Positions 2,805-57,808 of a stretch of 64,000 nt of DNA are shown here, piece by piece. The translations under genes and the position numbers were made by a program. Numbering within the stretch: the first letter of the stretch is position 1; each line of letters starts with the position of its first letter. The notes beneath the pieces were generated by a model, which had not been told where the DNA came from, searched no databases, and saw only the letters and a program-made list of their open reading frames with translations. The DNA comes from an uncultured Acidobacteriaceae bacterium (GTDB taxonomy: Bacteria > Acidobacteriota > Terriglobia > Terriglobales > Acidobacteriaceae), in the NCBI GenBank assembly GCA_963759285.1, contig CAVWYS010000005.1:3522-67521 (forward strand). Direction: 5' to 3'.

Positions 2805-3776
2805 ATGGTGCGGTTCACGGTACTGGCGTCGGGATCTAAGGGTAACTGCACGGTTGTCACCGGCGGCAATACCCGAATCCTGGTTGATGCCGGCCTTAGC
2901 TGCCGCGAACTCTTCCGGCGCATGCGCCTGGTCGATGAAGATCCCGCCACGCTCGATGCAATCATCATCACCCACGAGCACTCCGACCACGTTGCAGGCC
3001 TTGCCGTCACCGCCCGCAAACTTGGCATCCCGGTCTACTTCACCGAGGGCACACACCGCGCCTGGGTACGTTGGCTTTCGCCCCGCAAGCAGATGACCTA
3101 CACGCAATGGTTGGAGCAATGCCGCAAACAGGCCGCAGCGCGCATGGCCGAAGCCGATGCTGTCACATTGGAAGAATGCGATCCAGAAGACGTCGAATCA
3201 TGCGCGGATCCGGCACCCGCCGAAATCCCTGAGCCGACTCCAGTAAAAGCTGCCCCCGCAAAAGATCCTACCGCGCTGCCTTCACTCCAGTATTTCCAGG
3301 CTGGCAAGCCGCTCCAGATCGGCGACATCTCCGTCAGCCCGTTCACGATTCCCCATGACGCTGCGGACCCCGTCGGCTTCGTGTTCCAGGCAGAAGGCGT
3401 CCGCATGGCCGTCGCAACCGACCTCGGCTACATACCTCCCAACGTCAAAGCCCAGCTGAAGAGGGTTGATCTTCTGCTCCTTGAGTCCAATCACGACCTG
3501 GAGATGCTCCGCGACGGCCCCTACCCCTGGTCAGTCAAACAACGCGTCCTATCCCGCGTTGGCCACCTCTCCAACGAGGCCGCCGCCACTTTCCTCGAAT
3601 CCGAGTACGACGGTCAAGCCTCCTACGTCATCCTTGGGCATCTCTCTGAAAGCAATAACCTTCCCGAGCTTGCGCGCATTGCAGCCGAGCGTGCCCTCAA
3701 CGGACGAGCCAGTTTGTTAGCAAACCGGCTGTTGCTGGCAGAGCAACATGAACCCATGTCAACTATTTGTTTTTGA
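2805..3776 (+). CDS. MBL-fold metallo-hydrolase, YycJ/WalJ-like, with an acidic/Pro-rich insertion
   Basis: VLASGSKGN, LVDAG, THEHSDH, PHDAADP, TDLG, LESNHD, GHLSN, LGHLSESNN. Start moved to ATG 2805. Confidence 0.85.
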   Translation: MVRFTVLASGSKGNCTVVTGGNTRILVDAGLSCRELFRRMRLVDEDPATLDAIIITHEHSDHVAGLAVTARKLGIPVYFTEGTHRAWVRWLSPRKQMTYTQWLEQCRKQAAARMAEADAVTLEECDPEDVESCADPAPAEIPEPTPVKAAPAKDPTALPSLQYFQAGKPLQIGDISVSPFTIPHDAADPVGFVFQAEGVRMAVATDLGYIPPNVKAQLKRVDLLLLESNHDLEMLRDGPYPWSVKQRVLSRVGHLSNEAAATFLESEYDGQASYVILGHLSESNNLPELARIAAERALNGRASLLANRLLLAEQHEPMSTICF

Positions 3777-3988
3777 TGAAACTCGATTACAATCGTAAGA
3801 GGGAGTAATGGGCCCTTGCTGAGGGTTCCTCCTAATCTCTGCGACGTAAGTTTTGTCTTATCAGAAGGCTTTTAGTAATCCTGCATCATTCGGTACCCGT
3901 AAGGCATCCAATGGTGCGAACGGTTTTCGCGTTCTCCCGTGCAAAGCGCGACAACTTCCAGAATCTGCACAGAGCGAGTCTGAAGTCT

Positions 3989-31666: not shown

Positions 31667-34384
31667 TCACGCCGGCTGCAGCTCCTTCTTCGCGTCGGGC
31701 TTCTCCAGCACCGGTCCATGCGTCTCAACGGTCGGCGGCGCGGGTGCATCGCCAATCCGCTTGGAGTAGTGGCATACGATTGCAGCGCCGGGTTCAGGTT
31801 CAGCGATCTTCTTGCCGCGCTTCTTGGGCTTAACCTCTTCTTCCGCCCCCTTCTTCTTGTTGGGACACTCGAGGAAGATACCGCTCTTGAGCGTCTTCTC
31901 CACAAGGTACGCGTTGCCGCACTCCGGGCACTTCTGCGCCACCGGCTTGTAGTTCGAGGTAAAGTCGCACTTCGGATAATTGGTGCAACCCCAGAAAATG
32001 TTGCCCCGCCGCGCCTTGCGCTCGGCAATGTCCCCTTCGCCGCACTTGGGACACTTCATCCCCTCAATCAGGTTCTGCTTGATGTACTTGCACTTCGGAT
32101 ATCCCGAGCACGACACAAACTCGCCGTACGCCCCCTGCCGCAGCACCAGCGGCTTGCCGCAAACTGGGCAAGCTTCCCCCGTGGGCTCAGGGGGCTTCTG
32201 CTGCTGCTTCTGGCTCAGCTTGCGGATCGTCTTGCACGGCGGATCCTCGTTGTACCCCGGGCAGCTCATGAAAGGTCCGAATGGGCCCCGGCGCAGCACC
32301 ATCACGCGTCCGCAGTTCTCGCAATATTCTTCCGTGTCGCCGGCTTCCTGCGCCTCGGGCGTATTCATATCCGGCTTGGCTGCGATGTTCTCTTTTGTAA
32401 ATGTGCAGCTCGTCGGGTCCTTTTTGTTGTAGGCAGAACATGCATAAAAACTGCCGAATTTACCCCACTTCAGCAGCAGCGGCGATCCGCAAACATCGCA
32501 CTTCTCCGTCGTCTTCTGCTCCATGCGCTTGATGTCGCGCATAGTCTTGCTCGCATCCTTGAGCTCATCTTCGAAGTGGTCGTAGAAACCGTTCAGCAGA
32601 TCGGTCCACTTCTCCTTGCCCTCTTCAATATCGTCCAGTTCCTCTTCCAGCTTCGCTGTGTACTTGGTATCGAAGATATACGGAAAGCTCTCCACCAGAA
32701 GATCGCAGACCACCATCCCGATCTCGGTCGGATAAAAGCGTCCGCGCGAGCCGCCATGTTTCACCACGTACTCGCGATCCTGAATCGTGTTGATGATCGA
32801 CGCATACGTCGAAGGCCGCCCGATGCCCCGCTCTTCCAACTCCTTCACTAGCGACGCTTCGTTGTAGCGCGGCGGCGGTTCGGTAAAGTGCTCCTCGGGC
32901 AGAAGCTCCTCCAGTTCCAGTCCCTTTACGCCGTCCAGATTCGGCAGTTTGTTCGCCAGCGAGTCTTCGTCGTCGTCAGCCTTCTTCTCTTCCGTAACTT
33001 CGTACACCTTGAGAAAACCGTCAAAGCGTAGCACGGAGCCGCTCAGGCGGAAATCGTAAGTCTTGCCATTCAGCGCGGATTTCGCCTCAATCTTCGCTGT
33101 CGTCACATCGTAGACCGCAGGCACCATCTGCGAAGCAATGAAGCGTCTCCAGATCAGCGTGTACAGCTTCAATTGTTCATCGCTGAGATAGCGCGCCATC
33201 GATTCCGGCGTCCGCGAAGCATCCGTCGGCCGAATCGCCTCGTGAGCATCCTGCGCATCCTTCTTGCCCTTGTATGCGTTGGGCGTCTCCGGCAGATACT
33301 GCTTGCCGAGTTCCTTGGCGATCCAGGCTCGCGCACTCTCCTTCGCGTCAGGCGATACACGCGGTGAGTCGGTACGCATATATGTAATCAGACCCGTCGT
33401 GCCCTCATCGCCGATGTCGATGCCTTCGTACAGCCGCTGCGCAACGCCCATCGTCCGGCGAACGTTAAAGCCCAGCTTGCTGGCCGCATCGCGCTGCAGC
33501 TGGCTGGTGATAAAGGGTGCAAGCGGGCGCCTCTGCTGCTCGCGATATTGCACGGATGCAAGCGTCCACGTCGCCTTCTCAAGCGCAGCGAGAGCCGTAT
33601 CCATCGACTTCTTGTCGGGCAGCGCGCTCCCGATAAATTGATCCTTGCCGTCCTTGTCCTTGCCGTTGGGTACGCGTGCGGCCTCACCATCGATGCCAAC
33701 AAACTTGGCCTTGAAGTTCTTGTCCGACTGGCGCAACAACGGGGTACCCGCGGACCTGTTCATGTCTGCGGGGTGTAATTGTGCTTCCAGCGTCCAATAT
33801 TCAACCGGCTTGAACCCCGCAATCTCGCGTTCACGTTCCACGATGAGCCGCACCGCAACCGTTTGCACCCGGCCCGCAGAAAGACCTCGCCGCACCTTGT
33901 CCCACAGCAGCGGAGAAATCTGGTACCCCACAAGCCGGTCGAGAACCCGCCGAGTCTGCTGCGCGTCCACAAGATTCTCGTCAATGTCGCGGGCGTGCTT
34001 GAATGCTTCCTGCACGGCCTTCTTGGTGATCTCGTTGAACGTCACGCGGCGAATCTTCTTGCGTTCCTTGGCATTGGTGCCAAGCTGCAGAGCAAGATGC
34101 GCGGCAATCGCTTCCCCTTCCCGGTCAGGGTCAGGCGCAAGGAAGATCTCATCCGCCTTCAGCCCGGCCTTCTTTAATTGATCGACAACTTTCTCTTTAC
34201 CCGGCGAAACTACCAGCTCGGGTACAAACGTGCGGTTCTTTAGTTCCACGCCAATGTCATTCTTGGGCAAATCCATAATGTGCCCGATTGACGCGCGGAC
34301 CTCGAAACCTTTGCCTAGATACTTTTCGATCGTCTTCGCCTTCGCAGGAGATTCGACGATCACGAGTGATTTGGTCATTTCCAT
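31667..34384 (-). CDS. topA: DNA topoisomerase I (type IA) with C-terminal zinc ribbons
   Basis: LVIVESPAKAKTI, APDPDREGEAIA, SAGRVQT, LITYMRTDS (catalytic Tyr), GIGRPSTYA, repeated CxxC..CS.YP.C ribbons. Confidence 0.98.
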   Translation of the reverse strand: MEMTKSLVIVESPAKAKTIEKYLGKGFEVRASIGHIMDLPKNDIGVELKNRTFVPELVVSPGKEKVVDQLKKAGLKADEIFLAPDPDREGEAIAAHLALQLGTNAKERKKIRRVTFNEITKKAVQEAFKHARDIDENLVDAQQTRRVLDRLVGYQISPLLWDKVRRGLSAGRVQTVAVRLIVEREREIAGFKPVEYWTLEAQLHPADMNRSAGTPLLRQSDKNFKAKFVGIDGEAARVPNGKDKDGKDQFIGSALPDKKSMDTALAALEKATWTLASVQYREQQRRPLAPFITSQLQRDAASKLGFNVRRTMGVAQRLYEGIDIGDEGTTGLITYMRTDSPRVSPDAKESARAWIAKELGKQYLPETPNAYKGKKDAQDAHEAIRPTDASRTPESMARYLSDEQLKLYTLIWRRFIASQMVPAVYDVTTAKIEAKSALNGKTYDFRLSGSVLRFDGFLKVYEVTEEKKADDDEDSLANKLPNLDGVKGLELEELLPEEHFTEPPPRYNEASLVKELEERGIGRPSTYASIINTIQDREYVVKHGGSRGRFYPTEIGMVVCDLLVESFPYIFDTKYTAKLEEELDDIEEGKEKWTDLLNGFYDHFEDELKDASKTMRDIKRMEQKTTEKCDVCGSPLLLKWGKFGSFYACSAYNKKDPTSCTFTKENIAAKPDMNTPEAQEAGDTEEYCENCGRVMVLRRGPFGPFMSCPGYNEDPPCKTIRKLSQKQQQKPPEPTGEACPVCGKPLVLRQGAYGEFVSCSGYPKCKYIKQNLIEGMKCPKCGEGDIAERKARRGNIFWGCTNYPKCDFTSNYKPVAQKCPECGNAYLVEKTLKSGIFLECPNKKKGAEEEVKPKKRGKKIAEPEPGAAIVCHYSKRIGDAPAPPTVETHGPVLEKPDAKKELQPA
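33740..33776. repeat. Intragenic REP-like hairpin module, in frame within topA
   Basis: CGGGGTA-CCCGCGGAC-CTGTTCAT-GTCTGCGGG-GTG; 9-bp stem, 8-nt loop, same flanks as the inner module at 57676-57708. Confidence 0.65.
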
Positions 34385-38016: not shown

Positions 38017-38345
38017 TGCATTTCTCCTTGCGGCACGAGGTCCGGCAACACCGGCTCGCACTCATCACTGCTGCTGATCTCTGGTTTGCCCGCGCTGTTT
38101 CCCAGGCTCCGCCTCAACCAAAGGATAGAAGCGCCCGCGGCGCCAAAAAAGTACCGGGTGACCTACTGCGCCCGTACTAGCCCGTTACCGTTGCTTCCTT
38201 CCGGACCTGGCGGGATTGGCGGGATTACGTCGCGTAGGACCCGGCACTGACTGATTTTATCACCTTGGACGGTAGTCATCTGCACCGCAAAAGGTGCAGC
38301 GGCCGAATCAGATGATTGCAGCCGCTGCGGTGATCAGGGAATCAG

Positions 38346-41584: not shown

Positions 41585-43177
41585 GTGAGCAAAAGTTCCC
41601 AACCCACGGCTCCCACCGTGGGCTTTGTTTCGTTAGGCTGCCCCAAGAATCTGGTCGACTCCGAAGTGATGATGGGGTTGCTGGACCGCGGTGGGGCGCG
41701 CCTGACTTCCCACCCCGAAGAGGCCGATATCCTCGTCGTCAATACCTGCAGCTTTATCGACACCGCCAAGCAGGAATCCGTGGACACCATCCTCGAAATG
41801 GCGCGCTTCAAAACCTCGGGCTCCGCCAAAAAGCTAATCGTCGCCGGTTGCCTCGTTGAGCGCTACCGCGACGAAATTCGCAAAAGTATTCCCGAAGTCG
41901 ATGCCGTCGTGGGTACAGGGGAGCTCGAATCAATTCTTGAGGCAGCAGGGATTGCTCCATCGCATTCCACCGCCCCCTCGCCCTTCAACATCCTCACCGC
42001 AAACAGCCACGCTGAGGTCCGCGCCGGACAAGAGTCTCTGTCGGGAAGCCACAAAGTGTCAGGGCGCGACTTCAGTCGTGCTGAAACAACGGCACAAATG
42101 ACGGGGGCTTTAGCCCCTGAGGGAAACTTCCGCCCTGAAGGCAATCTCCGCGAACAGCAAGGCCGCTTCAGCCGCGAAGACTGGCATGGCGCAGCGCACA
42201 TGCTGCCGACCTACCTCTATAACGAAAACACTCCGCGTTACATCTCGACCGGCAGAACATCGGCCTACATCAAGATCGCTGAGGGTTGCGACCATCCCTG
42301 CACCTTCTGCGTCATTCCCAATCTGCGCGGCAAGTTTCGCTCCCGCCGCTTCGAGTCCGTTGTGGCGGAAGCACAACAACTGGTCGCCGCCGGCGTACAG
42401 GAAATCACCCTCATCGGCCAGGACACGACCTGCTACGGCGAAGACCTGGGCATCAAAGACGGCCTGGCTACTCTGCTCGATTCCCTCGCCGGAATCCAAG
42501 GCCTGCGCTGGCTCCGCTTCCTGTATGCGTATCCCAATCGCATCACCGGCAAACTTCTCGACACCATCGCGAAGCACGATAACATTTGCAAATATCTCGA
42601 CGTGCCCCTGCAACACGCTTCACCCGACGTGCTCAAGCGAATGAAGCGTGGGGCCGGTGCCGACATTTTCCTCAAAACGCTCGAAAAAGTCCGCGCAATC
42701 GTGCCCGGAATAGCACTGCGCACTTCCTTTATCGTCGGTTTCCCCGGAGAGTCCTCCGTCGACTATGAAGTTTTGGAGCAGTTCATCAGCCACGCAAAAT
42801 TCGACTGGCTCGGCGTGTTCAATTACTCCGACGAAGAAGGTTCGAAAGCCCACGTACTCGACGCCAAGCTTCCAAAGCGCACCATCGAGTCCCGTAAGCG
42901 CAAGCTGATGAAGTTGCAGCAAAGGATCTCAAAGCGCGCCAAGCAGCAGTGGGTCGGTCGCGAACTCGTAGTTCTCGCCGAAGGCGAAAGCGAAGAGACT
43001 CCGCTACTTTGGGAAGGCCGTACCGAATTCCACGCTCCGGAAATCGACGGCAAGGTCTACATCAACGACTTCGGCGATCTTCAAGCCTTGGAAGCCGGAA
43101 AATTCTACCGCGCCCAGATCACCGAGGCCCATGACTACGACCTCGTCGCACGAATCATGTCGGGACCCCTTTCCTGA
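41585..43177 (+). CDS. rimO: Ribosomal protein S12 methylthiotransferase RimO, with an internal insertion
   Basis: VSLGCPKNLVDSE, NTCSFI, VAGCL, radical SAM CDHPCTFC, QDTTCYG, C-terminal TRAM-like GRTEFHAPEIDG; start GTG 41585. Confidence 0.97.
   Translation: MSKSSQPTAPTVGFVSLGCPKNLVDSEVMMGLLDRGGARLTSHPEEADILVVNTCSFIDTAKQESVDTILEMARFKTSGSAKKLIVAGCLVERYRDEIRKSIPEVDAVVGTGELESILEAAGIAPSHSTAPSPFNILTANSHAEVRAGQESLSGSHKVSGRDFSRAETTAQMTGALAPEGNFRPEGNLREQQGRFSREDWHGAAHMLPTYLYNENTPRYISTGRTSAYIKIAEGCDHPCTFCVIPNLRGKFRSRRFESVVAEAQQLVAAGVQEITLIGQDTTCYGEDLGIKDGLATLLDSLAGIQGLRWLRFLYAYPNRITGKLLDTIAKHDNICKYLDVPLQHASPDVLKRMKRGAGADIFLKTLEKVRAIVPGIALRTSFIVGFPGESSVDYEVLEQFISHAKFDWLGVFNYSDEEGSKAHVLDAKLPKRTIESRKRKLMKLQQRISKRAKQQWVGRELVVLAEGESEETPLLWEGRTEFHAPEIDGKVYINDFGDLQALEAGKFYRAQITEAHDYDLVARIMSGPLS
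42059..42124. repeat. Intragenic twin-hairpin REP-like element (family T), in frame within rimO
   Basis: GCGCGAC-TTCA-GTCGTGC ... GGGGC-TTTA-GCCCC; translated as SGRDFSRAETTAQMTGALAPEG. Confidence 0.8.
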
Positions 43178-57623: not shown

Positions 57624-57659
57624 TAATCGCACGAAATACACACTTCCACAATTCGCGGG

Positions 57660-57723
57660 TGTCATCCTGAGCGCACGGGGCCCCAAGCGCACTTCAGCTT
57701 GGGGGTGGTAACCGAAGGATCTG
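57660..57723 (+). repeat. REP-G with a nested CCCC..GGGG hairpin module
   Basis: TGTCATCCTGAGCGCA-CGGGG-CCCCAAGC-GCACTTCA-GCTTGGGG-GTGG-TAACCGAAGGATCTG. Confidence 0.85.
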
Positions 57724-57808
57724 TTTCTCCCCCGAAGCCTTCTCAACGCGCTGCTGGGATAGGATCGGGGACCCGAATTGTTAGAATCGCGCTCGGGAAG
57801 GTGATGCA

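Follow-up and report, generated by a model that had tools for sequence, protein, structure and literature searches.

Embedded within the gene for DNA topoisomerase I (topA) of an uncultured Acidobacteriaceae bacterium is a short palindromic segment that, to judge from sequence comparisons, is very probably the remnant of a mobile palindromic element of very small size. The gene lies on a stretch of 64,000 nucleotides (nt) of contig CAVWYS010000005.1, hereafter the window. The element is 36 nt in length, its host genus is Terracidiphilus as named in public records, and it is sparse in the neighboring genera. The topA case would be one instance of a hairpin element that has colonized many housekeeping genes of the genus, with 14 codons gained at each insertion. 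That a dispersed palindromic repeat had been turned into protein sequence in topA was proposed in the first-pass annotation of the window, and the proposal is supported by a profile of the element, by the inserts of related TopA proteins, and by empty insertion sites. Coordinates of the features under discussion are provided in Table 1.

The insertion in topA

The topA gene is present in a single copy in this genome (one match), and TopA entries of the PDB match its open reading frame (ORF) with an E-value of 1e-152. The plus-strand letters from 33740 to 33776 are CGGGGTACCCGCGGACCTGTTCATGTCTGCGGGGTGT. As was noted at first pass, they contain a hairpin with an 8-nt loop that is read in frame on the minus strand. 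The segment is translated as ...LEAQLHPADMNRSAGTPLLRQSDKNFKAKF..., or in a longer reading LHPADMNRSAGTPLLRQ, and the frame is open throughout. The stem consists of nine pairs, including a G.T on the plus strand to which an A.C mismatch corresponds on the mRNA strand. The DNA fold of the segment amounts to -9.0 kcal/mol for the plus strand (z -2.2) and -6.5 kcal/mol for the coding strand (z -1.2). Hairpins of this quality, defined by a 9-bp stem, at most one mismatch, and a loop of 4-10 nt, occur in the window at a density of 1.27/kb, and topA holds one of them as compared with 1.9 ± 1.8 in shuffled versions of the gene. The topA hairpin by itself is thus not above chance; its significance arises because it sits on a lineage-specific insertion of 33 nt and appears homologous to a dispersed element.

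Shown by both DNA and protein alignments with 20 TopA orthologues of the same genus, which are 68-83% identical over the 150-residue stretch around the insert, is the absence of exactly 33 nt (11 amino acids) at this position in 20 of 20. A gap of 12-15 residues in the relatives had been anticipated; the gap is indeed there, with a length of 11 residues instead. All of the 20 insert-free proteins read ...LHPE(K/R)Q(A/S)DK.... The segment is also missing from the closest TopA in a large protein collection (P0015, 95% amino acid identity), which reads EALLHPERESDK at the insertion site.

A protein search limited to this region revealed an insert of 14 residues in the same position (LHP-ADKDLSAGTPVLHP-EKQ) in 13 of the 120 best-matching database TopAs, not counting that of the window, and a 42-nt insert is found at the topA site in 3 of about 165 genomes of the genus. 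The DNA of the insert-bearing relatives reads CAC CCC GCG GAC AAA GAC CTG TCC GCG GGG ACC CCG GTG CTG CAC CCG. Their inserts are perfect or near-perfect palindromes of the form CCCCGCGGAC-AAAGACCT-GTCCGCGGGG, in the register of the copy in the window, and they score 34-50 bits with a profile built from copies of the element outside topA. Where topA is free of the insert, the same profile does not match the insertion site. The segment in the window agrees with the relatives' 34-50-bit inserts in site, strand, and frame. With the non-topA profile, this segment scores 13.9 bits over model positions 3-43 (E 0.0018 among 15 topA loci). It is about 71% identical to the element consensus and 75% identical to the topA insert of locus L040, with 27 of 36 positions matching in a fixed register.

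That the segment, unrelated to any repeat family, arose as a hairpin by chance within a variable loop, or by a local template-switch duplication, merits almost no credence. The match to the L040 insert in a fixed register, the extent of the profile match, and the coincidence of site, strand, and frame with bona fide element insertions all argue against such origins, although hairpins of this kind are expected about twice per gene by chance, the 37-mer is without BLASTN relatives in its own genome, and the length of the loop varies within the genus. A local tandem or inverted duplication, considered because of the likeness of GCGGACAAR to the downstream Ala-Asp-Lys codons, was dropped once the dispersed family had been found.

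The topA span around the insertion site adopts five or more lengths in the genus (177, 189, 192, 210, and 219 nt). In topA of genomes G013, G019, G041, G180, G196, and G208 (e.g. loci L031 and L032) the loop is longer by five residues (...ILQSPGSASNKSQPETF...) that are unrelated to the element, and thus its length varies for other reasons as well.

With respect to the protein fold, the segment aligns to a β-hairpin turn of domain D2. The solved Streptococcus TopA shows a 14-residue alignment gap at this point, and the E. coli loop is longer there. An AlphaFold2 model, calculated with a 44-sequence alignment and used only for the secondary structure near the insert, places the latter between strands 196-206 and 224-232 with residues 208-220 at low confidence. 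We infer that the insert is probably a tolerated passenger with no function of its own in TopA.

The dispersed 36-nt element

Thirty loci from 30 genomes yielded the consensus (c/t)CCAC-CCCRCGGAC-GAAGACCT-GTCCGYGGG-GRCCCCGG, the outer flanks being unrelated and both orientations being found. The 36-nt element itself reads CCAC-CCCRCGGAC-GAAGACCT-GTCCGYGGG-GACCCC. Its stem is 10 bp in length, and 94% of the stem cells are paired. Compensatory cells number 48 versus 19.8 in shuffled alignments, with none of 500 shuffles reaching 48, and all four of the variable stem pairs change on both sides. The inner stem occurs as CGGAC/GTCCG, GCGAC/GTCGC, ACGAC/GTCGT, CAAAC/GTTTG, TCGAC/GTCGA, and other variants, with the loop and flanks remaining constant. 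The hairpin structure is under selection and is kept by compensatory changes. Note that stem position 5 (alignment A2, column 7 with 26) is A.C in 16 of 40 copies (G.T on the opposite strand) and G.T on the same strand in only one. This asymmetry hints that the strand CCGGGGTCCCC...GGGGTGG may be the folding strand.

A search with the strict palindrome pattern, allowing up to two mismatches, gave matches in 195 of 201 genomes of the genus, with up to 35 copies each; a reversed control pattern gave 0-3. When the inner stem was left free, 14-42 copies were found in the genomes of the genus (control 0), and two sister genera contained a few. In about 140 further Acidobacteriota genomes there were essentially none, with one single-mismatch match. 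A scan of one genome per prokaryotic species returned at least 120 loci, and among the matches listed, the 80 titled loci belong nearly all to Terracidiphilus or Acidobacteriaceae, plus Tunturibacter and Silvibacterium. The genome from which the window derives carries at least 25 copies. In IMG/VR, 19 viral contigs carry an exact-pattern copy (loci L235-L253), several with identical flanks. A literature search met no description of the family, which is, as far as could be found, unpublished.

The element contains no stop codon in any of its six frames. A sample of 31 near-perfect copies from 30 genomes includes 15 that are situated in the interior of long ORFs whose codon usage is coding-like. 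Among the coding copies, translation uses four of the six frames, the products being mostly HPTDEDLSAGTP or, reversed, GAPADRSSSAGW (13 of 16). Host genes confirmed with Pfam encode, in relatives, RNase R, AlaRS, an M20 peptidase, a HemN-like radical-SAM enzyme, GatB, a CysN-like GTPase, and PriA, and, in this genome, aconitase and an α-L-rhamnosidase. The other copies are positioned between genes or at gene ends, such that about half are intergenic. Head-to-tail arrays with a 42-nt period and up to six copies occur both within and outside genes. Three copies are arranged in frame in the CysN-like GTPase (L065), and two and a half in the rhamnosidase of this genome (C6:283209). In locus L162 (Terracidiphilus MAG SPRUCE 47), six head-to-tail copies extend from 3688 to 3932 with an exact 42-nt period. 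Given that 36 nt plus a 6-nt duplication equal 14 codons, and that no frame contains a stop, the reading frame of the host gene survives an insertion.

Target duplications and the history of the topA copies

The gain of 14 codons can be seen most directly in aconitase. The protein encoded in this genome reads KTFKTG-VPSDRSSSLGWKTG-PITTTV, whereas those of its three closest relatives read KTFKTG-PITTTV and are exactly 42 nt shorter at the DNA level. The insert has a 34-nt core with AAAACCGG on either side, an arrangement that is compatible with an element of 36 nt and a target duplication of 6 nt. Direct repeats of the target, 6-8 nt in length, are found in aconitase and in four topA inserts, and wherever the empty site is reconstructable, exactly 42 nt have been gained, of which the element accounts for 36 and the duplication for six.

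The four topA inserts carry perfect 6-nt duplications with different sequences, namely GGTGCT, GATGCT, GATTCT, and GCTGCT. These are the six bases before CCAC and after ...CCCC, identical within each sequence, and each copies its gene's own codon (Val, Met, Ile, or Leu) just upstream of Leu-His-Pro. The codon at this position is variable among insert-free TopAs, being mostly Gln or Leu. On the TopA tree, the presence of the insert requires nine changes, at least six of which fall on strongly supported branches. The differences in duplication from lineage to lineage imply at least four independent insertions at one nucleotide and in one orientation. As judged from these duplications, topA is a gene that has been hit independently by the element in several lineages at one precise site. 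The insertion point lies between the CT of the Leu codon and (N)CAC CCC, and the target, ...CT|S CAC CCC GAG, is similar to the 5' end of the element, CCACCCC. Such target mimicry is the likely cause of the hot spot.

Alternatively, one ancient insertion in an ancestor of the genus may have been lost repeatedly by precise deletion between the direct repeats (CTS CAC CCS), with the copy in the window having been kept since its second repeat was deleted. Slippage deletion, for which a hairpin with 13-nt near-repeat flanks is a classic substrate, brings back precisely the original sequence. The insert's patchy distribution fits loss as well as gain, the copy in the window is without its second repeat, and duplications that match at 2-4 of six positions (L036, L039, L040, L108, and that of the window) look old. 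We nevertheless regard this history as unlikely. The four perfect but unlike duplications each copy their own upstream codon, and a single event would need matched double changes four times. Furthermore, the neutral divergence between the topA of the window and that of its insert-free neighbor suffices for the decay of the copy.

Considerably less probable still is a selected protein motif, HPxDxDLSAGTP, spread by recombination among TopA and other enzymes, with the palindrome as a by-product. Most TopAs of the genus are without the insert, about half of the copies of the element are intergenic, and in different genes four frames and both orientations are translated. Moreover, the stem covaries at the DNA level in ways that alter the peptide (HPTD, HPSD, HPND, HPTN...), and the target duplications and 42-nt tandem arrays are likewise signatures of events in DNA. 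In favor of a protein motif are the repeated hits on the same topA site, the preference of the coding copies for two of the six frames, and the better preservation in the window of the stem arms (one change in 18) than of the loop (six of eight changed).

The coding strand of the copy in the window reads GCA CAA TTA CAC CCC GCA GAC ATG AAC AGG TCC GCG GGT ACC CCG TTG TTG CGC CAG. The 42-nt insert of L040 ends with ...CCG TTG CTG CAC GCG GAG AAG CAG, and the copy in the window is 9 nt shorter. Removal of A CAC CCC GA from TTG TTA CAC CCC GAG CGC leaves exactly TTG TTG CGC, and a 9-nt deletion may thus have removed a second Leu-His-Pro-Glu. The nearest insert-free relatives read A-L-L-H-P-E, as would be expected if the duplication had included the Leu codon that remains on the 3' side. 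Between this topA and that encoding P0015, 46% of the four-fold degenerate sites differ, corresponding to a K of about 0.7. A neutral insert gained after the split from P0015 is expected to be about 30% diverged, in agreement with the copy observed.

From these comparisons we infer that the element may have inserted into topA in this lineage after the split from P0015. Nearly neutral drift would have followed, together with the loss of 9 nt that included the second His-Pro-Glu, so that 33 nt remain. The loss of the second repeat would have removed a direct repeat that could permit clean excision, and the insert would now be selfish DNA tolerated in a loop of variable length.

Several observations weigh against the relic of an element as the explanation of the segment, or against the generality of the insertion rule. 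On a genome-wide scale the copy in the window is weak (E 0.17), and a BLASTN-short search of the 5.6-Mb genome with the hairpin plus 10-nt flanks (57-mer) gave a best match of 14 nt (E 0.76). The many intergenic matches that had been predicted for the 37-mer in the first-pass annotation are absent from this genome. Taken at face value, that blank would wrongly reject the idea, because the family is visible only through the better-kept topA inserts of relatives. The membership of the copy rests on positional and sequence homology to inserts of TopAs other than those most closely related to its own. The copy's target duplication is unrecognizable (two of six nt), and its length of 33 nt requires the additional presumed deletion of 9 nt. 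A perfect 4-6-nt in-register direct repeat accompanies 6-10% of 125 non-tandem copies, about 25 times the control yet a minority; the 36 + 6 rule has been demonstrated for the 42-nt tandem arrays and for those insertions that are young or reconstructable, not for every copy. No transposase has been tied to the element, and the four Y1 (IS200-like, PF01797) genes of this genome are without flanking copies. Finally, the AlphaFold2 model is poor, with a mean predicted local distance difference test score (pLDDT) of 48.7.

A universal 6-nt duplication was entertained on the basis of a first sample, in which 13 of 39 copies had repeats at least 5/6 identical, and was abandoned when the larger unbiased sample gave the 6-10% cited above for perfect repeats. 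The Y1 transposases were set aside as mobilizers, in this genome only, because no copies adjoin their four genes, the nearest being 13-88 kb off. Two copies positioned 1.4 kb apart on contig C7, examined as possible transposase flanks, bracket moeA/moaC.

With regard to target choice, 23 of the 125 non-tandem copies, which come from many Acidobacteriaceae genomes (loci L115-L234), lie between inverted repeats of at least 7 nt, versus 2.9 in the control. They thus occupy the loop of a different hairpin repeat or of a terminator-like hairpin, such as GGTGGCTTTT...AAAAAGCCAC. This distribution suggests that the element prefers hairpin loops or single-stranded targets. The fixed 6-nt duplication, in turn, would point to a staggered-cut transposase acting in trans. 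We tentatively raise the possibility, and hold it with rather little confidence, that the element belongs to an undescribed class of transposable hairpins that is ultra-small (36 nt), still active, and of a geometry adapted to coding DNA. It would choose targets that mimic its ends or lie in hairpin loops, which would account for at least four or five hits at one nucleotide of topA, where the Leu-His-Pro codons (CTS-CAC-CCC) resemble the 5' end of the element. In light of the strand-asymmetric A.C/G.T position, its enzyme might be one that acts on single strands.

Relation to known elements and to other repeats of the window

Among described repeats, the Rickettsia palindromic elements (RPEs) are dispersed palindromes, nearly half of which lie in frame in unrelated housekeeping and metabolic genes (Ogata et al. 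2000, via PMC10969869 and PMC3733652). Like the element described here, they are both intergenic and in frame within genes that stay open, they insert where the fold tolerates them, and no transposase of their own is known. They differ in their length of about 100-150 bp, in their obligate intracellular α-proteobacterial hosts, and in their unrelated sequence. The present element, in contrast, measures 36 nt (42 with the duplication), resides in free-living soil Acidobacteriaceae, and displays a fixed 6-nt duplication, 42-nt arrays within genes, and repeated hits on topA. It resembles an RPE in behavior and yet does not belong to that group.

For several bacteria there are lists of intragenic repetitive extragenic palindromic (REP) sequences, frequently located in genes for replication and repair (Di Nocera et al. 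2013, PMC3733652). REPs and their associated tyrosine transposases (RAYTs) offer a parallel in that a G+C-rich hairpin of 20-40 bp is present in tens of copies, some intragenic, with compensatory changes. Unlike the GTAG-type REPs, however, the element has no GTAG/CGTC end tag, the nearest equivalent being the GTGG after the hairpin on the other strand, and, unlike a REP/RAYT system, its copies do not flank the four Y1 genes of this genome. Chemistry of the IS200/IS605 type leads to insertion without a target-site duplication, whereas the reconstructable insertions of the element carry one. [quoted passage not shown] The element is far shorter and consists of a single hairpin over its whole length. 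Among the Y1 genes and the moeA/moaC-flanking pair that were looked at, no insertion sequence with matching ends, as expected of a parent, was encountered.

In-frame colonization of essential genes by palindromic repeats is known mainly from Rickettsia. The same behavior is encountered here in abundant free-living soil bacteria, with a much smaller element and hundreds of sequenced genomes for comparison. Filled and empty sites that coexist, dating by synonymous sites, and a recurrent site in topA render target choice, rates of gain and loss, and protein tolerance testable, and they bear on the old question of how selfish DNA supplies new protein loops. In practical terms, indels of 11-14 residues in marker genes (topA, alaS, gatB, priA, acnA) and spurious small ORFs can mislead annotation and the alignment-based phylogeny of Acidobacteriaceae.

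Table 1. Positions of the topA segment, its parts, and the repeats compared with it (window numbering unless a contig is given)
Feature	Position	Strand	Remarks
topA (DNA topoisomerase I)	31667..34384	minus	905 aa, frame intact; from ORF list and translation
12 codons ADMNRSAGTPLL in place of a single ancestral Glu codon	33734..33769	minus	net +33 nt, +11 aa; alignments with 20 orthologues
Probable decayed 36-nt element copy	33741..33776	minus	A-CAC-CCC-GCAGAC-ATGAACAG-GTCCGC-GGG-TACCCC
Presumed remnant of 3' target duplication copy (G-TTG-TT)	33735..33740	minus	followed by junction of the presumed 9-nt deletion, TTG TT[A CAC CCC GA]G CGC; from comparison with 42-nt inserts and the closest insert-free relatives
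Hairpin left arm CCCGCGGAC	33747..33755	plus	read from sequence and fold
Hairpin 8-nt loop CTGTTCAT	33756..33763	plus	family loop on plus strand is AGGTCTTC; 6/8 positions unlike
Hairpin right arm GTCTGCGGG	33764..33772	plus	one G.T against left arm
Aconitase gene with copy of element	C4:320592-321425 (this genome, outside window)		copy reverse-oriented and young, absent in three closest relatives
Comparison module, 69-nt form of separate repeat	57658..57726	plus	nhmmer family of about 80 copies; no element-profile cross-match; no Rfam match
Comparison module, 100-nt form, second hairpin nested in loop	47517..47616	plus	nhmmer family of about 70 copies; no Rfam family

The topA module had originally been grouped with two intergenic modules of the window, at 57676 and 47552. 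These belong to a separate family with which the topA segment has only its layout in common, namely a CGGGG(N)CCCC-stem, an 8-nt loop, and a stem-GGGGTGG, and a common membership is exceedingly improbable. No topA locus is matched by the profiles of the 69/100-nt family (about 150 copies), and the element profile has no significant match in 151 copies of that family. The stem and loop sequences are unlike, and the outer arms, GTCATTCTGAGCG...CGAAGAATCTG, are missing from topA. The L040 insert does have an 11-nt string, AACGGGGCCCC, in common with the consensus of the 69/100-nt family. The GGGGTG flank, at first taken as part of the module, corresponds to ancestral His-Pro codons that are present in insert-free relatives.

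The 69/100-nt repeat has the consensus GTGTCATTCTGAGCGAACGGGGCCCCAAACG-TTTTCA-GTTTGGGGGTGGTGAGCGAAGAATCTGCTT and about 150 copies genome-wide. Its outer stem covaries, ATTCT/AGAAT being found with ATCCT/AGGAT, and one copy on contig C6 is located upstream of a Y1 transposase gene, at a distance of about 170 nt. When the window was compared with Rfam, no family was matched except the small bacterial signal recognition particle RNA (RF00169, 69 bits), at 38149-38246 on the minus strand. A twin-hairpin repeat of a third family, with loops CTTTAG/CTTCAG, is translated in frame as ...SGRDFSRAETTAQMTGALAPEG... within a rimO-like ORF of 551 aa (about 42061-42118, plus strand), and further copies are located at about 1418, 8731, and 52389.

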